Source: a virus (Duplodnaviria; Caudoviricetes). From it: a DNA stretch of 64,000 nucleotides. How positions within the stretch are numbered: the first letter of the stretch is position 1; every line of letters begins with the position of its first letter. The position numbers were made by a program, and so were the translations under genes. Where the stretch lies: the IMG/VR virus record IMGVR_UViG_3300031951_000008, one strand, 5' to 3'. Under the pieces are notes generated by a model. The model saw only the letters and a program-made list of their open reading frames with translations. It had not been told where the DNA came from and ran no database searches. This document shows positions 1,243-62,065 of the stretch, piece after piece.

Positions 1243-4197
1243 ATGCCAAAGCCGGTGAAAATCGATAGTCGTAAGTTTTTGAGTGCCATCAATGAGTCTG
1301 CACAAGCGAATGTGGCACTTTATGAAGAAAAGGTTAGCCAGCTAGGACGCAGTGCCGGTAAAAGCTGGAAGCTGGCTTCTTTAAACAACAAGAGTTTGTA
1401 TATTGAAGACTCTCAAAGCAACACTTATTACGTTGCAGACCATAGCAAAGAACATGGTAAGGTAACAATCACGAATATTAGACCGCTCCAGATCGTTGAA
1501 GGCGAGAAAGAGGGCCTGTTCGCAGAGAACTGCTTAAAGCTAGTGCAAGCTATTTCTGAGAACGATCAAAAAGGAATGCAGACCGTATTCGATCGGATGA
1601 AAGCCCAGAGATTTTCTTCGCGAGCAGTGCCTCATTCAGGATCTGTAAAATGCAAGGATGGGGTTCTACGTAAGATTAATATTGTCCCAGAGAGTGCTAC
1701 ATTCACTGAAAGTGAAAGACGCAAGTTAATTTCGACGATTGTTGAAAGCTTGTCGGACAATGTGATCGTAGAGAACGGCAACATCGTAGGTGGCACATTT
1801 AACGACGGCGAACCGATCAAGCTTCCAGTGACCAAGTGGGCATCAAGGAAACTTGTAGCCAAGCGGATGTTAGAATCTGCAAAGAACGCATACTGGTCAG
1901 AAGGATTCCAAAAGAGAATCTACGATATCTCACGGTTAGTCGCTGAGTCGAAAATCGAACAAGCTGTACATGCCGTTGCTCCATTCTTGGACGAAATGGA
2001 AGAGTTTACTCTTTTAAACCAGAACCAATGGCAGGAATTGGTGGAAAACGCATTAGCTGCAAATGCTGTTTTCAATCAACAGCTATGCGAAGACACAGCG
2101 ACTTTGATGTTCAAGACGAACATGCGAATTAGCCGCGAGAAGATCGTGAAAGAATGGCGTAACATTGCTGTGAAGACAGAACACCCTGTTTTAGCGGAAA
2201 ATGTGAGCGTTCTGGCTGATTCGCGCAATTTTGAGTCTTCCTATCAGAAGTTTTTATCTCTGATCTTTGAAGCCGTATCGAACAGAGAAATAACCGCAGA
2301 AGCTCTAGCTACTACTTTAGAAGTTTTGAAGAACAAGACTCCTAAAATTAAAGAGTCTCATGATTTGTCCAGTAAGCTTGACAACTTGGTAGCACGCTTG
2401 AAAGATTCGAACTTAGATGATGCTGCGATCTACGAAGCAGAAGACTTAATAGCGACAATCCAAGAAGAGCTAACAGCTAACGACTCACTCCAAGATTTTG
2501 ATCAGATGCCCGGATTGGGCGGAGGCGATGCTGGGTTAGATGTAGAGGCAGGTAGCGGAACACCGGTAATCAACATTAACTCTCCACTCATTCAGATCGG
2601 TGGAAGCAGCTCGGCAAGTGGCGATCAAGGTGAAGATGATCTTAGCGATCTAGATATGGGCGAAGAGATGCCAAGCGAGGAGGAAAGCTTGGATGACTTA
2701 CTTGGCGCAGCCCCAACGCAAGCACCTGCCGCTCCTGCTGCTGCACCAGCACAGGCCCCAGCTGCTCCTGCAGCCGCCCCCGCTTTTGAAAGCAGACTCA
2801 AAGGCCGTGCTGTGAATGAGTCTCGTCCGGTTCATTATGAGATGAAAGACGAAAATGACGATGACATGCCAGGTGAGGAAGAAGAGATTGAAGAATCCAA
2901 TGATCCATATTCTTACAATGGTGGCTCTGTTGTCGAGCATACCTTGTTAAATGACTATGGTTCTCCTGTGATATCAGACAGAGCAGACTTGGCTAAGATC
3001 ACCAACGTCATGAGAAGATTAGCTGTCACAAGAAGACTTACTGGTGAGATGCTAGAGCACAATCTGCCAAGCATGGCTGAAGCGAGTATCAAAGCATTAG
3101 GCATCAGACTTCATGAATCGAAGATGCCGAGAGCTATTGAACAAGCAATCGAGTTGTTCAATGAAGAATCAGGAAAGAATCCTTTCCCTGGGGCTGCACC
3201 GCCTTTCGGCAAGAAGTCTTCTGTTGATAATGATGGCGACGGCAAGTTCAACTGGGAAGATGAAGATGAGAGCGAAGACGATAGCGAAGATGAAGGAATG
3301 GCTGAAGAGCAATACCATAAGCCAAGCATTCCACAGAGAGGATACAAGAAAGCTAGCGTTCAACAGTTAGAAGAGGGTATAGCTTGGGGGACTTCTCAAG
3401 CAGATGCTGTACTCGGTGAGTATCGTGGTGTCCCATTCATCTTCGACCATGGTGGAGATAATCAAGCATTATCACCAGTAATCTTGAGTGAAGATGGATC
3501 GGTCGAAATTCCAATTCCAGCTAATCTGGTGGAGAGTGCTTTCGCTGCTGCTAATATGGCCAGTGGATCAGGAGAAGCATTCTGTCAATGGCTTGGCGGT
3601 TCGATCGAGCAACTGCGTCCTATTACTGACGACGAGGATTTGTCGATCAGTGAGGCGATGGCAAAGATTACTACTGGCCCAGATGGGTCGATATCAGTCG
3701 AAGTTTCAGATGACGTTGAAGTCAATGAGCTTGGGGACGATATGGACGATATGGACGATATGGGCGATATGGAAGATGAGGGAGAATCAGAAGCAGAATT
3801 TGACTTAGACAATGACGGTGAAACCGATGTAGAAGTCGAAATGGACGACGAAATGCAGCCAGTTGATGCAGTGGATGTCTCAGTGGTAGATTCAGAAGCT
3901 GGCGACGAAGATGAGATGCCAGATTTTGACGATGAAGAGTCCATGGATGATGACGGCTCAGATGAGTCAGAGGACTTCGGCGACGAATCTGATGAAGACG
4001 AAGGCTTGGCAGAGGACAATGATATCACTGATCCAAAGAGTGCTAAGTACGCGAAGCACACGAAGGAGAACTTGCGTGATATGCCGACACCAAAGCTCCC
4101 AAAGAAGTCAGATGACCAACTAGACAAACTCGGACCGACGCTTAAAAACGACGACGGTTCGGGCACGAAACCACCAGTAGCAAGGAAGGGCAGCTAG
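1243..4197 (+). CDS. Large acidic prohead core / internal head protein (putative)
   Basis: Occupies the T4 gp67/gp68 position between portal and protease. It has a very D/E-rich C-terminal half and many I/L/V-x-E-S motifs (AINES, AVNES, RLHES). Confidence 0.6.
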   Translation: MPKPVKIDSRKFLSAINESAQANVALYEEKVSQLGRSAGKSWKLASLNNKSLYIEDSQSNTYYVADHSKEHGKVTITNIRPLQIVEGEKEGLFAENCLKLVQAISENDQKGMQTVFDRMKAQRFSSRAVPHSGSVKCKDGVLRKINIVPESATFTESERRKLISTIVESLSDNVIVENGNIVGGTFNDGEPIKLPVTKWASRKLVAKRMLESAKNAYWSEGFQKRIYDISRLVAESKIEQAVHAVAPFLDEMEEFTLLNQNQWQELVENALAANAVFNQQLCEDTATLMFKTNMRISREKIVKEWRNIAVKTEHPVLAENVSVLADSRNFESSYQKFLSLIFEAVSNREITAEALATTLEVLKNKTPKIKESHDLSSKLDNLVARLKDSNLDDAAIYEAEDLIATIQEELTANDSLQDFDQMPGLGGGDAGLDVEAGSGTPVININSPLIQIGGSSSASGDQGEDDLSDLDMGEEMPSEEESLDDLLGAAPTQAPAAPAAAPAQAPAAPAAAPAFESRLKGRAVNESRPVHYEMKDENDDDMPGEEEEIEESNDPYSYNGGSVVEHTLLNDYGSPVISDRADLAKITNVMRRLAVTRRLTGEMLEHNLPSMAEASIKALGIRLHESKMPRAIEQAIELFNEESGKNPFPGAAPPFGKKSSVDNDGDGKFNWEDEDESEDDSEDEGMAEEQYHKPSIPQRGYKKASVQQLEEGIAWGTSQADAVLGEYRGVPFIFDHGGDNQALSPVILSEDGSVEIPIPANLVESAFAAANMASGSGEAFCQWLGGSIEQLRPITDDEDLSISEAMAKITTGPDGSISVEVSDDVEVNELGDDMDDMDDMGDMEDEGESEAEFDLDNDGETDVEVEMDDEMQPVDAVDVSVVDSEAGDEDEMPDFDDEESMDDDGSDESEDFGDESDEDEGLAEDNDITDPKSAKYAKHTKENLRDMPTPKLPKKSDDQLDKLGPTLKNDDGSGTKPPVARKGS

Positions 4198-4198
4198 C

Positions 4199-4981
4199 AT
4201 GCTACCAAGTCGCAGTGCTTATATTGGTAATGGGATGATTATCGATAGGAAACTGATAGCAGAAACTGGTGTAATACCAGTAGGTCTACAGCTGATTACA
4301 GATACCTTCCCATTCCAAGTCATCGATAAAAAAGAAACGGTGACAGAAGATGTAAATGGTCGAGAAGTACCGGTGATGAGAGTTACCGGCCTTTTCCAAA
4401 TGGGCGATAAGGAAAATGCTAACCAGCGTTTTTACTCTACCAAAGATGTTTTAGCTCCGGCTGTACAAAGCATCCAAGAAGATGTAAGTGGTAGGGCGGT
4501 GATGGGCGAGTATGATCACCCCGCCGATGCTAAGATCCACTTAGATCGCGTAAGTCATCTCATAACGAAAATATGGATGGATGGACGCAAGGTCTTTGGA
4601 GAAGCTGAGATCTTACACAAGTTACCACTAGGTGCATGCCTTAGAGGACTATTCGAGCATAAAGTTCGAGTCGGTATCTCTTCTAGAGGCGTTGGTGACA
4701 TGGAGGTAGCTGAAAACCACGGGCAACAGATCTACCGCGTCATGCCAGGCTATGCTTTCGTTACTTGGGACGCAGTAGCAGAACCATCGGTTAGCGGAGC
4801 TATCCTTAATATTCAAGAAGGTCTGAACAGACGCTTGAATCCCATTAAGAAGTTACGGAATCAATTTACGCCAGAGACTTATAACAACTTGGTAGTAGAA
4901 GAAATAAACGACTACTTCGGGTTGAATAAGAGAGGCCCAAAATCAGGTTTGAATACTAGAAGCTTGCGAACGCGTAGCTAA
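4199..4981 (+). CDS. gp21: Prohead maturation protease, T4 gp21-like
   Basis: Motifs GLFQ..D.EN.NQRFY, GEYDHP, RVSHLI, VGISSRGVG, WDAVAEPS. Confidence 0.93.
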   Translation: MLPSRSAYIGNGMIIDRKLIAETGVIPVGLQLITDTFPFQVIDKKETVTEDVNGREVPVMRVTGLFQMGDKENANQRFYSTKDVLAPAVQSIQEDVSGRAVMGEYDHPADAKIHLDRVSHLITKIWMDGRKVFGEAEILHKLPLGACLRGLFEHKVRVGISSRGVGDMEVAENHGQQIYRVMPGYAFVTWDAVAEPSVSGAILNIQEGLNRRLNPIKKLRNQFTPETYNNLVVEEINDYFGLNKRGPKSGLNTRSLRTRS

Positions 4982-11338: not shown

Positions 11339-11342
11339 AGTA

Positions 11343-11413
11343 AGGGTCGTAGCTCAGACGGCAGAGCGGAGAATATATTTCTCAGGACGATGGTTCGACT
11401 CCATCCGATCTTT
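11343..11413 (+). ncRNA. tRNA-like RNA / pseudo-tRNA with 5-nt anticodon loop
   Basis: Acceptor AGGGTCG/CGATCTT, D arm GCTC/GAGC, T arm GATGG-TTCGACT-CCATC; anticodon arm GAGAA-TATAT-TTCTC has only a 5-nt loop. Confidence 0.7.
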
Positions 11414-11419
11414 GTAATA

Positions 11420-11504
11420 GGGGCTGTGGCGGAACAGGCATACGCAACAGACTTAAAATTTGTCGGGAGTTAATCCCATGTGGGTTCGAATCCCATCAGC
11501 CCCA
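11420..11504 (+). tRNA. tRNA-Leu (anticodon TAA)
   Basis: Acceptor GGGGCTG/CAGCCCC, anticodon arm ACAGA-CTTAAAA-TTTGT, long variable arm GGGA..TCCC, T arm GTGGG-TTCGAAT-CCCAT; CCA not encoded. Confidence 0.92.
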
Positions 11505-13741: not shown

Positions 13742-13749
13742 GAAGCATC

Positions 13750-13803
13750 TGTGGCAGGTTTGGGTTTAACAGCGAATTCGCGTCTTACCCAACACCTGCC
13801 ACA
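13750..13803. promoter_or_regulatory. Long inverted repeat between divergent genes
   Basis: TGTGGCAGGT/ACCTGCCACA plus TTGGGT/ACCCAA; lies 8 nt from the lyase start and 12 nt from the 13816 start. Confidence 0.6.
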
Positions 13804-13815
13804 AAAAGATACAGT

Positions 13816-53088: not shown

Positions 53089-53517
53089 TTAGGCCGTTGT
53101 ATTATCAGTCCTTGTTTCTTGTTCAAGAGAGGCCAAAGGAAGAGGCTCTTTGGATATCGTGATGGTGCCTGTTCCTGCAAGCCCACAACACTGGTGGCCC
53201 GGATTGCAGCAACATTTTATATCTGGCTCAATGTATCTAATAGTCGCTGTACCCTCGTGGTCAGTATATCCTGTTATTTTTCTATCATCGATTTCGATAT
53301 CGTATTTAAAGTTATGTGCTGCTCTGCCTCTATACCATACACTTATTACCGTCTCCCATCCCATGATCCCACCAGCCGGTACTGGTTGCTTCATACCTAG
53401 CATAGGCACTGTCCGCATGGCATTGTACACTTTTATGCGATAGTCGATATCGCCATACTCGGCAAGAATGTAACGGTGCTTCGCTAAAGCCACGGTTTTA
53501 GAAGGGGGAGTCGTCAT
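53089..53517 (-). CDS. Hypothetical protein
   Basis: Coupled to the kinase gene; CCC..HQCC cluster. Confidence 0.55.
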   Translation of the reverse strand: MTTPPSKTVALAKHRYILAEYGDIDYRIKVYNAMRTVPMLGMKQPVPAGGIMGWETVISVWYRGRAAHNFKYDIEIDDRKITGYTDHEGTATIRYIEPDIKCCCNPGHQCCGLAGTGTITISKEPLPLASLEQETRTDNTTA

Positions 53518-54304
53518 ATGCCTTACTTACGGCGGCAGGAACGCGACGCTTTCGTATGCGTTTGCGTCTTTTAAGTTGACCACCCTTTACTAGCTCAGGC
53601 TCGTCGTAATAATATGAATCATTATACATCTCCCGATTTGCCCGCTCCTGAGCATATGGAGTGGAGCCTTCCCACAATGGGTCTATTAAAACCAATTGTC
53701 CATTGGCTCTATACATCAAATTATTTTCATGTAGATCTAATACACCAGGAATATTATTTTGTTTTAGCAAGTATAGACCTTCTGCTACATTCCGAATATT
53801 AGGATCTTTTAGTCGACGCTCTACCAGAGCGAATGTTTCTGACATCGAATCTACGTCAGATATAGTCGACTTCCCACTAATGCTTTGAAAAATTAGGTCT
53901 ATGTATTTATCTAAGAAATTAACCGTTCGGCGGTGATCATCCCAATCTTTTGGCTCATACAATCTCTCGATTCGAGCGACATAGACCTTAGACCATCTTA
54001 GAGTTCTAGTCCATCTTGGGACTACCGATTTAGGTGGGCCGTAAATTTTAGGGAAGGACACATGAGGATGAGAATATGCGAATCTAATGAATTTTAGGTA
54101 AATGTCGTCTTGTGGGAATAATTTTATCACATATGGCCAATCAGGATGATATAATACTTGTCCATACCTTCCTTCGCCTAGAAGCTGTCCGCCGTCAGCT
54201 TCAAACTTGTCGACTAGCTTCCACCATGTAAGATGATCATTAGCCGGATCAGACAAAAGGTCTTTTGGAGCCCCAAAGCCCTCTATGATGTATGACAGTT
54301 TCAT
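53498..54304 (-). CDS. Ser/Thr protein kinase, T7 gp0.7 catalytic-domain-like
   Basis: LLGEGRYGQV glycine loop, HP..P.VIK(61), FPKIY, D190-LHENN-LM catalytic loop, LID208P. Confidence 0.8.
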   Translation of the reverse strand: MKLSYIIEGFGAPKDLLSDPANDHLTWWKLVDKFEADGGQLLGEGRYGQVLYHPDWPYVIKLFPQDDIYLKFIRFAYSHPHVSFPKIYGPPKSVVPRWTRTLRWSKVYVARIERLYEPKDWDDHRRTVNFLDKYIDLIFQSISGKSTISDVDSMSETFALVERRLKDPNIRNVAEGLYLLKQNNIPGVLDLHENNLMYRANGQLVLIDPLWEGSTPYAQERANREMYNDSYYYDEPELVKGGQLKRRKRIRKRRVPAAVSKAYDDSPF

Positions 54305-56814
54305 TATGTCACTTCTAGCTGACCGTACGAAAATTCAGAGAACAATGATATCTGAGTTCTTACGTCCATTCTTCGTACAGTTGCGCCAGGCCAAAGTCTC
54401 GCACCGAACTTACCGAATGATCTATTTGGATCGTAGTCGATTGGGAAGTAAGGAGTTTGTACATTGACAGGTGTTGGAAGGCTCGCACTCAGAACAGAAC
54501 TAGGTGGGACGAGGAGCTGGTTCCACCAGATCCACAGTTGACTTTCTCTTACCATTATTTCTAAACGATTCCAATATTCGCTCTGAGACCCACCTATCTG
54601 AGCACCACCGTCGTAGACGACAAACCCTTCTGGTGTAGCAGAAGGCTGAGAGCCTATACCAGAGTAAGTGCCAGCTTGTGAGTAGATTCCGCTCACAGCA
54701 TATCCTGGAGCGAGACCACGGACAAAGTCGTCGACATCATCGAGTACGTCCTCTTCATAAGGCAGAGACATGTCCAAATGGCCGACTTTGAACTGGACAT
54801 CAACTACCTGCGAAGATTCGTTATATGAAAATTCTGCTCTTACGATAGTAGCTGAATATTCTTGGTGTAGTAATTCGACAATGTCTCCTACTTCACCAGG
54901 ATAGGGCAAGTTGTTACTTACTCCTCCGATTAGTACGATGGTGTCACAGCCACCGGGCAGATTTGGCGGGTTTGTGAAGTCAGTTATGTCCGAACCACCT
55001 AACCCTGTCCCTTGTGTCTCTTGTAAAGAGGTCGGGAACATTAGTTTACGCTTGTAATTATAGATAACATTTTGATTGCTATAAGGATACAAGCATCTTA
55101 AGGCACCAAATTGCGGAAGATCGTGGAAATGTGCACCGCAAACTCTCACGTAATGGCTGCCGTCTTTCAGAATACCTTTACCTATCACTCTCAGGTATTT
55201 AGTAGTAGTTTCATCAATAGGTGCCCTAATTAAGATATCGTACGGCGTAAAGTTAGAGCTAGACGGGCGACCGATATCTAGCCTCAGCTTAGCGTTGCAC
55301 AGATTCTTACGATTCCATAAGTATACCGGTCTCTCACTAAAGTCGGTCGGAGCCTCTGTAGAGGCTACTACCTTAAGGCCGGGCAGATCTGTATCGATAA
55401 TCGCTCTATGCTGGAGGCTTATATCTGCCTCTTCTGTACCGCCAGTTGAAGCCACGTCGTAGCTCAACAATGGATCATCATATCCGGTCAGCCCCCACAA
55501 TGTTTGACTAAATTCCCTGATAGCTGAGACCTGTTCTGCGCTGGTTTTGTCTTCGCTTCCAGCCCCCGGCGGCAGTTCTTCTCTCGCTATATCGACATCA
55601 CCAAACTGAGTCTGGCCTACCCACGTCCAAACGTGGTTTGGATTGAGTGTCGGCTTCTTAGAGAAATAATATCGCAGTATGGGTTGCCCTGATACTTCAG
55701 CGATCTTGAAGAACCATAGCTCCACTAGAGAGCCAATAGGCAGTAGGTCTATTGAAGCATCTAAGATCAGTGATTGAGGATTCGCCCCTGTAGATGGATT
55801 TTCTGGGTTAATATATTGCCATACGTTTTTAGCTGAGAATGGATCGCCAACAGCAGCATTCTTATCGACATTCCATTCCCGACAAGTATAGAGATTTGTA
55901 GAGAGGATAGAGCTAGTATAATCGACAATCACGGCCATCTTCTTAGATATTAAATGGCCTTTATACAACAGGCTGCCGAGCATGTTGGAGTTAGGCTCCA
56001 TGCTCAGGTCAAAGCGTGTTAAATTACCATCTGCGTCTTTGCCTGTAAACCAAACATTCTCTACTTTGCCGCCAGCACCTGGGGACATGGCCCAACCGAT
56101 TTCGGTTTGTAAGCTATTGAGTTGATTCCTTTTAAGTACGACTTCAAATTCGGCAGTGCCAGGAGCTATCGTGTCATCATACCTTTTAAATATAAGTGAC
56201 GGATACTTGCCCTTATTATTAAGAGTCGCACTTGGGTTGTTTGGGTCGGCTATAGTTGTCTCAGGGAACAGATGGATTTTAAGCTCCCCATAGGCATTAA
56301 CACCAGGAAGCTTACCACCGCACGATGGTGGTCGTATACTAGCAATATCTGTCTCGTCTTGAATCCAGTATATCTGAGTGCATTCTTCGCATGCACAATT
56401 TAGTGGGATTGGACTATCGACGGTAAACCTGACTACGTTACCAATCCGTTCTAAGCTGATAAACTCGGTTCCGGCAGCAAGGATTATGTCACCTTGCATC
56501 CAGCCACCGTCGTCTGGGAATCCTGCTCCTTGAAATCCTAACACTCCTAGCCTTGTTTGCAGTAAGGCATCAAGTTTGCATTTGTCATCAGGTGCCATTA
56601 GTCCAGGCGTTTCGCAAGTAGCAGATGGTATTGGGTCTTCTGCTATGTGAGAATGGCCGTGAAAACTGGGGAAGATAACCTGAGATTCCTTGAAGTACAA
56701 AGCTCTCTGTTGTTCATCATAGGAATAACCTGAGGTTATTCTATTAGGGCCTTCTACTTGAATAAACTGACCGTCCAAAAGGACTTGATGCTGCGGTATT
56801 TTGGTTATAGCCAT
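54304..56814 (-). CDS. Large structural protein (fibre/baseplate-like)
   Basis: HGHSH..DPIPSATCETPGLMAPDDKCKLD motif shared with 42486/44079; beta-rich body. Confidence 0.6.
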   Translation of the reverse strand: MAITKIPQHQVLLDGQFIQVEGPNRITSGYSYDEQQRALYFKESQVIFPSFHGHSHIAEDPIPSATCETPGLMAPDDKCKLDALLQTRLGVLGFQGAGFPDDGGWMQGDIILAAGTEFISLERIGNVVRFTVDSPIPLNCACEECTQIYWIQDETDIASIRPPSCGGKLPGVNAYGELKIHLFPETTIADPNNPSATLNNKGKYPSLIFKRYDDTIAPGTAEFEVVLKRNQLNSLQTEIGWAMSPGAGGKVENVWFTGKDADGNLTRFDLSMEPNSNMLGSLLYKGHLISKKMAVIVDYTSSILSTNLYTCREWNVDKNAAVGDPFSAKNVWQYINPENPSTGANPQSLILDASIDLLPIGSLVELWFFKIAEVSGQPILRYYFSKKPTLNPNHVWTWVGQTQFGDVDIAREELPPGAGSEDKTSAEQVSAIREFSQTLWGLTGYDDPLLSYDVASTGGTEEADISLQHRAIIDTDLPGLKVVASTEAPTDFSERPVYLWNRKNLCNAKLRLDIGRPSSSNFTPYDILIRAPIDETTTKYLRVIGKGILKDGSHYVRVCGAHFHDLPQFGALRCLYPYSNQNVIYNYKRKLMFPTSLQETQGTGLGGSDITDFTNPPNLPGGCDTIVLIGGVSNNLPYPGEVGDIVELLHQEYSATIVRAEFSYNESSQVVDVQFKVGHLDMSLPYEEDVLDDVDDFVRGLAPGYAVSGIYSQAGTYSGIGSQPSATPEGFVVYDGGAQIGGSQSEYWNRLEIMVRESQLWIWWNQLLVPPSSVLSASLPTPVNVQTPYFPIDYDPNRSFGKFGARLWPGATVRRMDVRTQISLFSEFSYGQLEVT

Positions 56815-58484: not shown

Positions 58485-59555
58485 TTAACAGTGAATGAGG
58501 CTGACGGACTCAGTTATGTATCTTCCCAGCCTCGGCGAGTAGTATGTTATTACTGATTCTTCTAATTCTTCGTCTGTAGTGTTAATAGATATTGGTTCTT
58601 GCGGTGCTAGTTCTTCTTGTGGTGGCAATTGTTGTGCTGATTGTGATGGTTGTACTGGTGCTTGTGGCTCTAGTAATTTATCTTCATCGGGGGCTTTAGG
58701 ACGCATTAATTCTTGTTGGTTCTCTCGCCTTTCTTGCTCGAAGTCTCTTCTATTAGACGTTTTTTGCTGAGCTAGTGGCGGGGCGGCTTCTTTTCCTTTA
58801 TCAGCTTGGATTTCTGGGCCAATCTGATCTGGTGGTAGTTCTGGTGCCAGGCCAGGTACCTGTCGCCTTCTCAAGTCTTTAGCAGCTTTAACAAGAGGGA
58901 CATCTTCTCGACGTTCTACACCAGATGTAGAGTTATCATATTCAGCATCTTGCTTTTCTTTGTTAGCCATTTGCATTTCGGGAGAGTTAGGATCTGCGGC
59001 TGGAGCTTGCTGTAATTTTTGAACAGTATCATCTAACTCCTGCCTCATTTGCTGAAGATCCTGAGGATACTTGGGTTGTGCGTCCTGCGTTCTTTGATCC
59101 TTCGACTTGAACATGCTACTTATCTTATTCTTTACCCAATCCTTAGCGGTCTTCATTATACCATACTTAGGATACATTACATCCGTATCAACGCCACGTA
59201 TATAGGCAGCGTTGTAGGTTCTATAATAATTAGCGAATATATCCGGCAGTAATCTCTTACCCAAATGATAGCGTCGATATAAATTGCCAGCAGCCATAAT
59301 CTTAGGCAGTTCTTTGGCTAACTCTGTATATTGCTTTTGGGTGAGATAATTAAGGTTAATTCCGCCGACAAGATTATTTCTGGTGGTCGGATGGCGATAT
59401 GCCCCTAATAGTAGAATATCAGGATTTGGGTCATTGTTGAAGTTACTGTAATCGAACTTCCATCTCGGACCCTCTCCGTCCTCACAGAGGACTACCTCGG
59501 CTAGTATCTCTCTAGCTTCATTTAAAGAGATGGTAACAAGGTCTTCGTATTTCAT
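58485..59555 (-). CDS. DNA end protector (T4 gp2)-like protein with Q/P-rich tail
   Basis: F.Y...D..P.ILLL....GGINLNYL....YYRTY...I pattern; SLNEA/ILAE motifs at the N-terminus and LEES/ITES at the C-terminus. Confidence 0.5.
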   Translation of the reverse strand: MKYEDLVTISLNEAREILAEVVLCEDGEGPRWKFDYSNFNNDPNPDILLLGAYRHPTTRNNLVGGINLNYLTQKQYTELAKELPKIMAAGNLYRRYHLGKRLLPDIFANYYRTYNAAYIRGVDTDVMYPKYGIMKTAKDWVKNKISSMFKSKDQRTQDAQPKYPQDLQQMRQELDDTVQKLQQAPAADPNSPEMQMANKEKQDAEYDNSTSGVERREDVPLVKAAKDLRRRQVPGLAPELPPDQIGPEIQADKGKEAAPPLAQQKTSNRRDFEQERRENQQELMRPKAPDEDKLLEPQAPVQPSQSAQQLPPQEELAPQEPISINTTDEELEESVITYYSPRLGRYITESVSLIHC

Positions 59556-62035
59556 ATGCTACGAATTATAGCCGCATTTTTCAAAACTAGCTGCCTAGAT
59601 TCGTTGATGCTCTTTGGCCGCTTAATTGAAACGAGATAGTCATTGCCTGCGAAGTGGTTATCTTCGCAAGCTATTTGTGCTGCTATATTTACATATGGTA
59701 TAGCATCGTGTGAGAATTCAAGTACGGCTTCCCGACCTTCTGTCTGTAGTATGCCCATACCATTGGCAGTATTAATGAATGAGTGCAAAGCTGCTTCCGT
59801 AGGCATAGTCAAGATTGCTTTAATTGGCTTTCTTGAGAATGGTATTCGTATGTCGTACCGTCTTCTGCATTCGTTAAGTGCTCTATCGAGCCTCGCAGCA
59901 ATGAGACGCGATGCGTTCTGTAGAAGCATAAAGTCTACCGCGTCCATTGACTCTAATATCGGTAACTCTTTGGCTAAGTAACTCTCAGCAAATCCCTCGG
60001 CTTTAAATCGATTTAAGTTGCTGGTAGCCGCAGCTATTCTGAGCTTCATCAAGCCGTTCAAGTATGCAGTGCTGACTGCCTTGTTTGAAATGGCTGTATC
60101 AGTTTTCTTAGAGATATCGACTTCCTTGCCGGTTCTCTTGTCGATGTACGTAGACTTCATACCAGGTGCTTCAGCTTTGGCGGACCTAGCAGTCTGGATG
60201 CCTAACTGTTCGAATTCCTTTACTTCCGCAGTCATTTCGTCCTGAATCTCTTTGGGATGCATCTGTGGATAATCACGCCGAGTCCATATAGAGTGCCAAA
60301 GTTCTCCGGATGGTGTTGGCTCGATCTCAGGGTCTTCGTTGGGAGACCACCAGCCAACAGCATCTCTAGGCTTGGATAGATTAGATCTTGTAACGCCCTT
60401 ACCAGGATATTGGCTTGCGATCTTACCTAAATGCCGCAATACGAAACGGAATTCATTAGCCGACATCGGGCCGCCTATCTTGGCAATACCAGATTGTTGC
60501 CATGGCTGCGATTCTGCTGCCGTGGGCTTCCTGGTCTCAGCCCCTAAATCTAGAGCTATTTGATTAAGCTTAGGCGATTTGGCGATGATGCCGGATAAAT
60601 TGTAATTCAATGCGATCTGCAGCAAAACATTAAGCCGGTCAGCTGCTTCTCGTCCTGCTAGTGTGAATTCTACTTCGGAGTCTTCGTCGGCTTGAGTGAA
60701 GTATTTGCTCTCTAATGATCGACCAGACTTCGCTTCAACGTCTTGCTTATTACCCAGATCGTCTTCTACATCGAGGCTACTAACACCCTTTGTTAGATTG
60801 ACGGCTCTAGTTTCGCCTTCGTAGGAGCCACTTCCCAACCATTCAGGAGCATCTGGGAAAGTCTTTTTGGTTTTTGCCCAGACAAACTGGCCTGGACTGG
60901 CTTCAGTCCATCGGTAGTATGCAACGTTCTTTCTCGATCCAGTAGATACAGCCTGTCCTAGGCCTGTTGAAGCACCTCTGATCGGGGTTTCTTCTAACTC
61001 GATCTCATCCTGTAGCTGGCGTATACGGGCCTGAGTAGCTTCAATCCTATCCTGGTTTCCACTCTCTAGTGCGTCGGCATAATCCATCGCAATAGCGTAG
61101 ACACGACTTGAGTATTGCTCGAAAGGATTGTCCGGATGCTTATCATAGCTCTTCTTGGTTCGGAAGGGTCCTTTAATTTGATCCGCTATCGCTCTGGCTT
61201 GAACTGGTTTTTTAACGGCTAGCAAAGCATCTAAGCCTTTTAATCCTGTCTTTTGCGATTTTCCACCAATAGTTTGTGTCGCCTCACCGCCTTTTGCCTT
61301 TATGCCTGCTATTGATCCGCCGATGCCGTGTTCTATAGCACCGGCAATATTTCGTGTAACGAAGGATATAAACGCCGACCTGGATTCGTCTACGCCAGGC
61401 TGCATCATCTTTGATAACTCGATCGCTCCATTTTGATAGAGGTCATTTATAAATTGGTTATCGTTACCTCGGCCATATTTTCCGGCAATTTTCTTAGCGA
61501 TGCGGTACAATGGTGCTCCACCCATACTCCCGGCTTTAGGACTGCGGGGATTGGGCTTGTTAGAATATAAAGCATTCATATCACCAGCATAAGCTATTGC
61601 TACCTCGTCTTGCGTCCATTGAGGAGCCGCTCCACCGGGCTGATAACCTGGAGGTGGGGGGTATCCACCTCTGCTCGTCCAGGGCTTAGTCTCATACTTA
61701 GGACTAGCTGTCAGTGGCCCAATGGTATGGAAAAGAACATCTTCAGCATACTGTCTATCGTAACCAGGAGCGTACGGGTCTTTCCAATTTGCACCTGGTA
61801 CAAATGAGGCACCTGGTTTTCTCTTCGCAGTAGGAGTGCTCGTTTGTGACGTAGTAGCAGATGGACCAGCTGCGGCTGGTTCTTCTTCTACTTGATCAGT
61901 CGACTGTTTCGTTTGGTCTTCTGATTCATCGTCATAGATATCAGAAAAATCTACGTTCAATGCTTCATTGATACCGCTAACACGTCTTAATTTCTGTTCT
62001 AAAATCGAATCTAGTGAACCAATAAAACTTTTCAT
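59552..62035 (-). CDS. Insertion-expanded sigma-70-family RNA polymerase sigma factor
   Basis: aa140-156 WTQDEVAIAYAGDMNAL (r1.2/2.1); aa198-238 DLYQNGAIELSKMM...FISFVTRNIAGAIEHGI aligns without gaps to RpoD DLIQEGNIGLMKAV...FSTYATWWIRQAITRSI; SSLDVEDDLG (r3.2); MSANEFRFVLRHLG (r4.1); MHPKEIQDEM and ISNKAVSTAYLNGLMKLR (r4.2). Confidence 0.75.
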   Translation of the reverse strand: MKSFIGSLDSILEQKLRRVSGINEALNVDFSDIYDDESEDQTKQSTDQVEEEPAAAGPSATTSQTSTPTAKRKPGASFVPGANWKDPYAPGYDRQYAEDVLFHTIGPLTASPKYETKPWTSRGGYPPPPGYQPGGAAPQWTQDEVAIAYAGDMNALYSNKPNPRSPKAGSMGGAPLYRIAKKIAGKYGRGNDNQFINDLYQNGAIELSKMMQPGVDESRSAFISFVTRNIAGAIEHGIGGSIAGIKAKGGEATQTIGGKSQKTGLKGLDALLAVKKPVQARAIADQIKGPFRTKKSYDKHPDNPFEQYSSRVYAIAMDYADALESGNQDRIEATQARIRQLQDEIELEETPIRGASTGLGQAVSTGSRKNVAYYRWTEASPGQFVWAKTKKTFPDAPEWLGSGSYEGETRAVNLTKGVSSLDVEDDLGNKQDVEAKSGRSLESKYFTQADEDSEVEFTLAGREAADRLNVLLQIALNYNLSGIIAKSPKLNQIALDLGAETRKPTAAESQPWQQSGIAKIGGPMSANEFRFVLRHLGKIASQYPGKGVTRSNLSKPRDAVGWWSPNEDPEIEPTPSGELWHSIWTRRDYPQMHPKEIQDEMTAEVKEFEQLGIQTARSAKAEAPGMKSTYIDKRTGKEVDISKKTDTAISNKAVSTAYLNGLMKLRIAAATSNLNRFKAEGFAESYLAKELPILESMDAVDFMLLQNASRLIAARLDRALNECRRRYDIRIPFSRKPIKAILTMPTEAALHSFINTANGMGILQTEGREAVLEFSHDAIPYVNIAAQIACEDNHFAGNDYLVSIKRPKSINESRQLVLKNAAIIRSI

Positions 62036-62057
62036 TGTTATCTCCCTTGTTATATAA

Positions 62058-62065
62058 TAAATTTG
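62058..62065 (-). promoter_or_regulatory. Candidate late-promoter motif CAAAnnTA (CAAATTTA on minus strand)
   Basis: In the 38-nt gap upstream of the sigma-like gene, before its AAGGGAG RBS. Confidence 0.5.

Follow-up and report, generated by a model that had tools for sequence, protein, structure and literature searches.

Can a phage start the transcription of its genes by bringing a sigma factor with it inside the particle? Phage transcription is known to begin either at host sigma-70 promoters, sometimes with the help of injected modifiers such as T4 Alt, or with a complete polymerase that is itself injected, as in N4 and phiKZ. The question is raised by an open reading frame (ORF) of 827 amino acids (aa), P0001, which occupies positions 59552-62035 on the minus strand of a 64,000-nucleotide (nt) stretch of tailed-phage DNA (Duplodnaviria, Caudoviricetes; IMG/VR record IMGVR_UViG_3300031951_000008); this whole stretch is called the window in what follows. 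An earlier note, made from the letters of the window, had proposed P0001 as a candidate sigma-70 factor packaged in the virion and matured by the prohead protease, and both the ORF and the (I/L)-x-E motifs that it listed are found in the sequence (ILE13-Q, INE24-A, FAE684-S, ILE695-S, LNE722-C and INE812-S, the hyphen marking the candidate cut). We consider it very probable that P0001 is truly homologous to the sigma-70 factors, though very divergent and interrupted by large insertions. The whole reading, i.e. that of a late-made, leader-addressed, trimmed and virion-delivered sigma acting in the next host, is built from sequence patterns, and we hold it tentatively, a little short of calling it probable.

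Homologs of P0001 make up 75 metagenomic clusters, none of them named; the phage contigs that carry them reach 408 kb, and the gene is present as a single copy per genome; no relative was found by megablast and tblastn among 50,697 isolated phage genomes. The resemblance to sigma factors begins with region 2 (Table 1). When a full-length AlphaFold model of P0001 (predicted local distance difference test score, pLDDT, of 67) was compared with 48,161 representative chains, the top 50 included four sigma region-2 structures, all matched by P0001 aa about 90-360: SigB (Z 7.1, root-mean-square deviation (rmsd) 3.1, 84 residues aligned), a fragment of RpoS covering regions 1.2-2 (Z 6.9, rmsd 3.2, 89 aligned), sigma70 (Z 6.5, rmsd 1.8, 71 aligned, 27% identity) and sigma32 (Z 6.2, rmsd 4.2, 100 aligned). 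With hhalign, aa 176-246 fall on residues 383-451 of Escherichia coli RpoD at 30% identity (E 1e-3), and the stretch from region 2.2 to 2.4 is aligned without a gap, just as had been read from the sequence; a six-sequence sigma profile gave an E of 7e-4 over the same columns. The region 2.2 helix, in which N202, G203 and L207 are invariant, keeps the sigma pattern and is the best conserved part of the protein in the family alignment. The tie to Pfam goes through an intermediate, since P0001 itself is without a match there and a distant homolog, P0091, passes the Sigma70_r2 threshold (32.8 bits against a cut-off of 24, E 5.9e-8). P0091 can be regarded as a positional ortholog because it is followed, with an overlap, by an ortholog of the gp2-like gene that also follows P0001 (43% identity, E 2e-34).

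The same hhalign alignment confirms the region 2 substitutions that the earlier note had listed: RpoD W433 and W434 are replaced by R228 and N229, and Q437 by G232. The putative replacement of R584/E585/R588 by N/K/S in region 4 was read by eye. The R228-N229 pair is nearly invariant in the P0001 family, and the promoter-melting aromatics found in region 2.3 of primary sigma factors are not kept. Sigma factors of the extracytoplasmic function (ECF) type likewise lack the tryptophan pair and yet initiate, so that the pair is not required for membership in the sigma-70 family. A promoter specificity other than that of sigma70, also proposed from the sequence, would follow only from the substituted residues.

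Region 4 is less readily recognized from sequence than from fold. The C-terminal half was modelled separately with 68 sequences (pLDDT 85; predicted template modelling score 0.81), and about 15 of its top 50 matches among the 48,161 chains are sigma region-4 domains, with Z between 3.8 and 5.0. They come from Taq sigma-A, SigL, SigB, CnrH, SigD, SigR, SigW, SigK, SigH, WhiG and RpoE, ECF factors being the source of most of them; for instance, 82 residues are aligned with Taq sigma-A 356-437 (Z 5.0, rmsd 2.5) and 65 with region 4 of SigR (Z 4.1, rmsd 2.0). These Z-scores are low because the about 65-80 aligned residues are spread over 220 and the helices are split by insertions, one of them conserved (about aa 541-593) and another variable (about aa 612-650). 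Of the large insertions reported in the earlier note, one was placed between regions 2 and 3.2 and one within the region 4 helix-turn-helix, and both are there. Conservation across the family extends to the sigma-4 domain, its putative recognition helix included. Among sequence comparisons, the distant homolog P0088 matches Sigma70_r4_2 at an E of 0.013, and a Pfam scan of the 68 C-terminal halves brought out one member that matches helix-turn-helix families, Sigma70_r4_2 among them at 4e-4; a small custom hidden Markov model (HMM) of region 4 gave weak matches only, which recurred at the LTxxExRxxxRxFG block. The family HMM aligned to RpoS region 2, then to region 3.2, and to a phage sigma at the start of region 4 (4.1), i.e. 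in the correct order, each match being weak. The claim that all the sigma-70 blocks follow one another therefore holds, weakly, for regions 2, 3.2 and the beginning of region 4, and region 4 as a whole is recognized at the level of fold only.

A sigma factor has to bind the core polymerase, and the modelled complex of P0001 with residues 230-345 of E. coli beta', used as a stand-in for the host subunit, is in line with this. It scored 0.76, whereas none of three controls exceeded 0.00; 58 of 80 solved complexes reach that mark, as do 2 of 110 mismatched pairs. Three docking runs had at least 87% of their contacts in common, with a pLDDT of at least 84 for the partner, and the modelled interface joins beta' 271-298 (the clamp helices) to aa 194-212, i.e. 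the region 2.2 helix. The complex modelling that the earlier note had recommended thus came out in its favour, as a likeness and with the E. coli subunit. Because sigma-beta' complexes have already been solved, passing this mark means likeness to them, not proof of binding, and we say no more than that region 2.2 of P0001, as modelled, resembles the core-binding contact of sigma factors on beta'.

At what stage of infection would P0001 be made? The answer comes from the CAAAnnTA motif, which had been noticed upstream of P0001 and shared with head and fibre genes. The motif is indeed placed 30 nt before the P0001 ATG, and other copies in the window lie upstream of the scaffold gene and of a divergent pair of fibre genes. 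It recurs 24-40 nt upstream of the orthologs in four related records (L001-L004), which with the window makes five phages; these orthologs are only 30-39% identical and the motif sits in otherwise unrelated intergenic DNA. Promoter statistics were drawn from 400 kb of a complete relative, G001, in which CAAAnnTA occurs 10, 17 and 8 times at 20-29, 30-39 and 40-49 nt before gene starts, where 1.45 copies are expected per bin, i.e. an enrichment of 7-12-fold over the interval of 20-49 nt. The genes found behind it in G001 are those for the tail sheath (1.9e-81), the tail tube (3.2e-25), fibre-like proteins, the scaffold ortholog, an 836-aa protein also encoded near P0001, and the sigma-like gene itself. 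Because it precedes virion genes, this promoter class is most likely late, and membership of P0001 in the late regulon, as judged from these patterns, seems likely. A scan of the region from 9.8 to 29.8 kb for promoters of the sigma-70 type was not informative (69 sites versus 59.5 ± 8.2 in shuffles). Since P0001 would be made only together with virion proteins, it is most simply understood as being meant for the next cell.

If so, it should have a way into the head, and the two ends of the protein suggest one. A short, amphipathic leader that ends in (I/L/F)-x-E is present in all 59 homologs examined, i.e. in 52 of 52 close ones, defined by the conserved DRQxxED block, and in 7 of 7 distant ones. 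The glutamate is at residue 13-19 in the former and 16-31 in the latter. The leader of T4 IPI has the same layout and ends in ITE19-A. Because it is present in every lineage, within a segment that is otherwise poorly conserved, the leader appears to be under selection. Toward the C-terminus, 65 of 69 aligned homologs retain E684 (L/I/M/F-x-E-S) and 53 of 59 retain E695 (P-I/L-L-E), with L, I, M or F two residues upstream of both; the prediction that homologs would retain such terminal x-x-E tags was thus correct at both ends.

The enzyme that would use these sites is encoded in the window, within a head module of T4 type made of a portal gene (Portal_T4), a gene for a 984-aa protein, the protease gene, a scaffold-like gene and the gene for a capsid protein of the Gp23 type (4.9e-79), and a gp21-type protease is also found in four of four related records. 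The capsid protein of the window has ILE88-D immediately ahead of its Gp23 domain, for which reason the specificity of the protease is probably T4-like. In T4, the propeptides of Alt are removed at both ends (PMC9026906), which supports the parallel with this protein that had been drawn at the outset, and the capsid-targeting sequence is portable (PMC3012670, PMC9026906). Processing in T4 is blocked when the Glu of the site is changed to Asp (PMC9026906). Taken together, these sequence features make loading of P0001 into the head plausible, and somewhat favour the view that it is targeted there and trimmed.

The gene that follows P0001 points in the same direction. It encodes a 356-aa remote relative of the T4 DNA end protector gp2, and the coupling between the two genes was rightly noted before: they overlap by ATGA, and the ortholog of the gp2-like protein is the sole match to phrog_429 (the T4 gp2 family) in three of four related records (E 1.5e-4 to 7.5e-4). 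By BLASTP, the protein of the window itself matches T4 gp2 at an E of 7e-4; among the isolated phage records it has no match. The pair formed by the sigma-like and gp2-like genes is kept even beside the distant P0091. The gp2-like protein also has a conserved leader of its own, in which (I/L)-x-E directly precedes the invariant residues DGEGPRW, a layout suggesting that the head protease acts on this protein too. T4 gp2 is a virion protein delivered with the DNA; to our knowledge it is not processed in such a way.

The next question is which polymerase and which promoters P0001 could serve. No RNA polymerase beta subunit was detected with PF00562 in the complete relatives (408 and 354 kb), the subunits of jumbo phages being very divergent. 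These relatives encode one or two ordinary sigma factors each, of 257-336 aa and without a leader. Because they have a T4-type head, ordinary sigma factors and no detected beta subunit, they fit the group 2 jumbo phages, which are without polymerase and depend on that of the host (PMC7824862). No clear gp55 was found in four relatives with the single T4 gp55 sequence and phrog_234; T4 gp55 itself matches phrog_234 at 2.9e-69. A candidate target of a delivered sigma would be a bipartite element of G001, TTAAC-N15/16-GCAACA, which occurs in 55 copies versus 1.35 in shuffles; nothing ties it to P0001. The copies are on one strand in 50 of the 55 cases, mostly ahead of an array of small ORFs and mostly between 183 and 255 kb (L023-L042), and are often trailed by a conserved hairpin ending in ATTCCCCCA. 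One copy lies 37 nt ahead of a five-gene run that ends in an ordinary phage sigma of 290 aa, an arrangement that would fit a sigma cascade seeded from the particle. The window was searched for this element or a comparable repeated dyad, and none was found.

These observations could be connected as follows. P0001 would be transcribed along with the virion genes from its CAAAnnTA promoter and made as a precursor, the N-terminal leader of which (13-24 residues) would direct it to the assembling prohead, as the capsid-targeting sequence does in T4. The gp21-type protease would then cut the leader after ILE13 or INE24 and probably also remove the tail after E684 or E695, in the manner of the two-ended trimming of T4 Alt. 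The resulting protein of roughly 660 residues would enter the next host together with the DNA and the gp2-like end protector, where it would bind the host core RNA polymerase and direct it to phage promoters before any phage protein is made. That P0001 acts as an initiating sigma after its ejection is, in our judgement, a possibility to be taken seriously without being expected. A little more doubtful is an elaboration in which P0001 is a virion-delivered pro-sigma, kept inactive by its tails, matured by the prohead protease and ejected with the genome so that the host core reads phage early promoters.

Several findings pull the other way. P0001 has no Pfam match even at an E of 10 and belongs to no PHROG family (one stray match, E 0.12); the family profile retrieves no sigma chain from the PDB sequences; Foldseek, run against the PDB with the full-length and C-terminal models, gives nothing at an E of 0.001 or better; and with hhalign the start of region 4, its best local match, is not significant (E 0.45 for RpoS, 0.44 for the small sigma profile). 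The fold and profile check proposed in the earlier note is accordingly split, structure comparison retrieving both sigma-2 and sigma-4, Foldseek and Pfam remaining blank for P0001. The Z-scores, up to 7.1 for sigma-2 and up to 5.0 for sigma-4, lie where helical bundles may match by chance. Beyond the matter of homology, a single (I/L)-x-E near an N-terminus is insignificant, such a short motif being present there in 17 of the 73 ORFs of the window (23%); the helix past E695 is conserved, which is unexpected for a discarded propeptide (our guess is that it serves before cleavage, e.g. in keeping the precursor inactive); open-complex formation is uncertain because W433/W434 are replaced by R-N family-wide; and since no gp55-type late sigma was found, P0001 could be that late sigma itself. 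The lack of any direct match in Pfam, PHROGs, PDB sequences or Foldseek and the middling Z-scores could mean that there is no sigma homology at all, only a chance match of helical segments. We judge this very improbable, because two separate domains each retrieve sigma structures specifically, the blocks come in the correct order, P0091 lies above the Pfam threshold for Sigma70_r2, and the docking uses the correct helix and the correct beta' residues.

If sigma homology is accepted, P0001 might still be an ordinary phage sigma that works, unpackaged, in the infected cell, perhaps a late sigma that stands in for gp55, reads CAAAnnTA and reinforces its own synthesis, with the conserved N-terminal helix and the Glu sites having a role in regulation or folding instead of head targeting. 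Such a view draws on the supported homology, on the failure to detect a gp55 homolog in the two complete relatives, on the position of the sigma-like gene itself behind CAAAnnTA and on the shortness of the (I/L)-x-E motif. It meets a start-up problem if the gene is placed only behind a late promoter, and it leaves several things aside: canonical phage sigma factors have no leader, whereas 59 of 59 members of this family have one at a fixed distance; the gene is coupled to a relative of gp2, in T4 a virion protein that is delivered with the DNA; and the relatives have one or two ordinary sigma factors, which could serve the late genes. We therefore regard it as unlikely. Packaging and ejection are retained, on equal evidence from leader and late promoter, if P0001 is a decoy that occupies the sigma site of the host core through region 2.2 and shuts off or re-routes transcription, opening no promoters. 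Region 2.2, the best conserved region, is placed on the beta' clamp helices in the modelled complex, and the melting residues W433/W434 have become R-N, all of which a decoy would explain; a pure decoy would have no need, however, of a conserved sigma-4 domain and putative recognition helix, and ECF-type sigma factors initiate without the tryptophan pair, so that we find this rather improbable. It is more improbable still that P0001 is a head-internal DNA-binding or structural protein of sigma descent, which packs or escorts the DNA ends with gp2 and has no role at the polymerase. The conserved pairing with the gp2 relative, the large conserved insertions without sigma counterpart, and the leader and Glu sites would suit such a protein, but helix 2.2 keeps N202, G203 and L207 and is modelled onto beta' (controls 0.00), where loss would be expected without polymerase contact.

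Delivery of a sigma factor by the virion, as proposed above, would combine features of several known systems. With the bacterial sigma-70 proteins (RpoD/RpoS, groups 3-4, ECF), P0001 shares a region 1.2-like block, regions 2.1-2.4, a 3.2-like acidic linker and a four-helix sigma-4 helix-turn-helix, in the same order; it differs from them by its 827 aa, by conserved insertions that interrupt regions 1.2 and 4 and separate region 2 from region 3.2, by R-N in place of W433/W434, by lying below every Pfam threshold, and by an N-terminal leader and a C-terminal tail that bear sites of protease type. T4 Alt and IPI-III resemble it in the short leader ending in (I/L)-x-E, in the gp21-type protease encoded in the genome and in late expression (here deduced from the motif), and Alt also in the candidate cuts at both ends and the proposed takeover of transcription at time zero. 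In contrast to them, the cargo would be a sigma factor rather than an ADP-ribosyltransferase or an anti-restriction protein; there is no sequence relation, and P0001 is known from genes alone. Phages with a virion RNA polymerase of the N4 or phiKZ type likewise bring in with their DNA a means of transcribing non-host promoters, as is proposed for P0001, but they deliver a whole polymerase, whereas the phage of the window would deliver the specificity subunit and borrow the host core. As a comparison of mechanism only, Bacillus pro-sigma-E and pro-sigma-K are inactive precursors that a dedicated protease matures once a defined step of morphogenesis is reached; these are cellular, have a pro-sequence at the N-terminus only and are cut by membrane proteases, whereas P0001 would be cut at both ends by a capsid protease, the inactivity of its precursor being a guess.

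T4 gp55, phiKZ gp68 and AR9 gp226 are, like P0001, highly divergent sigma-like specificity factors encoded by phages. T4 gp55 has 185 aa and a sigma-2-like part only; identity of P0001 with this late sigma (phrog_234) was rejected in view of the absence of a PHROG match, the length of 827 aa and the presence of a sigma-4 domain. The phiKZ gp68 and AR9 gp226 proteins serve phage-encoded polymerases, which the phages with P0001 appear to lack, and a gp68-type subunit was set aside since the PF00562 beta subunit was not found in the complete relatives. No report of a virion-delivered sigma factor was found in the full-text literature and in jumbo-phage reviews up to 2026 (PMC7824862, PMC13282480). 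The parts, the sigma-70 family and T4-type head cargo, are known and their combination is new; P0001 may, if its sequence has been read correctly, be the first example of a sigma factor that a virus particle delivers. Injection of the specificity subunit alone would then be a cheaper, third strategy to start phage transcription, and would explain early promoters unlike those of the host in giant phages without a polymerase. Naming these proteins as sigma factors by itself improves the annotation of about 75 clusters that had none, from uncultured giant phages whose genomes reach 408 kb, and the leader of P0001 could be a portable head-loading tag for phages with T4-type heads.

Table 1. Positions in the window of P0001, its parts and the associated genes and signals
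Feature	Position	Strand	Basis or remark
P0001, divergent sigma-70 family protein	59552..62035	-	75 homolog clusters, 1 copy per genome
CAAAnnTA copy, virion-gene (late) promoter-like: CAAATTTA	62058..62065	-	30 nt before P0001 ATG
Ribosome-binding site of P0001, GGGAG	62042..62046	-	Direct sequence reading
N-terminal leader, aa 1-24, with ILE13-Q and INE24-A	61964..62035	-	Candidate capsid-targeting sequence and protease sites
Acidic low-complexity spacer, aa 25-80	61796..61963	-	Few homologs only (alignment); pLDDT about 30-50
Region 1.2-like block and sigma-2 domain (regions 2.1-2.4, aa 175-237)	61298..61792	-	Fold, hhalign, ortholog Pfam match, model contact
Conserved helical insertion and linker, aa 247-365 (DNPF..., GASTGxGQA blocks)	60941..61297	-	No sigma counterpart identified (alignment, model)
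Region 3.2-like segment, aa 417-443 (S-L-D ... acidic run)	60707..60787	-	Family HMM to RpoS region 3.2, per-sequence E 0.006; weak
Sigma-4-like domain, aa 455-671, with conserved insertion aa 543-589 and putative recognition helix aa 648-670	60023..60673	-	Fold searches of model
FAE684-S and ILE695-S, conserved candidate C-terminal protease sites	59948..59992	-	Homolog alignment
C-terminal tail: conserved helix aa 698-723, then ferredoxin-like alpha/beta domain aa 735-805	59621..59944	-	
356-aa gene, remote T4 gp2 DNA end protector relative, translationally coupled	58485..59555	-	ATGA overlap, phrog_429, BLASTP
gp21-type prohead protease, presumed processing enzyme	4199..4981	+	Peptidase_S77 7.1e-16; phrog_207 1e-39

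Two further parts of P0001 deserve mention. The spacer that comes after the leader (aa 25-80, 61796-61963, minus strand) is strongly acidic and disordered and is reminiscent of the acidic, DNA-mimicking region 1.1 of primary sigma factors. The ferredoxin-like domain (59621-59833, minus strand) gives fold matches with a Z of 7-8 to ACT/CutA-like and peptidase dimerisation domains; it is restricted to P0001 and its two or three closest homologs and sits past the candidate C-terminal cut sites.

Other genes of the window are of interest in relation to the head and to host takeover. Between the portal and protease genes, an interval occupied in T4 by small core proteins, the 984-aa protein (1243-4197, plus strand) belongs to no known family, has an INE18-S leader and contains 22 (I/L)-x-E sites, which makes it a candidate for a giant protein of the head core or of ejection. 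P0001 shares its minus-strand gene run with a 268-aa protein (53498-54304) that matches phrog_15752, the family of T7 gp0.7-type protein kinases (E 1.7e-9), and starts with MKLSYIIE-G. Kinases of the gp0.7 type are modifiers of host transcription, and this one may be another delivered host-takeover protein. The 836-aa protein (54304-56814, minus strand) is 66-71% identical across phages the neighbouring proteins of which are only 30-50% identical; neither Pfam nor PHROGs has a family for it, none of the 50,697 isolated phage records matches it, and an Atlas search gave weak tail-fibre-like leads only.

Two observations concern the remainder of the window. Adjacent tRNA genes at 11342-11504 (plus strand) comprise a tRNA-Leu(TAA) and a gene called as tRNA-Tyr with the unusual anticodon ATA (A at position 34). 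Between divergent genes, at 13742-13815, there is a long inverted repeat, CTGTGGCAGGT ... ACCTGCCACAG, with GAATTC at its centre, which could be an operator or a bidirectional terminator.

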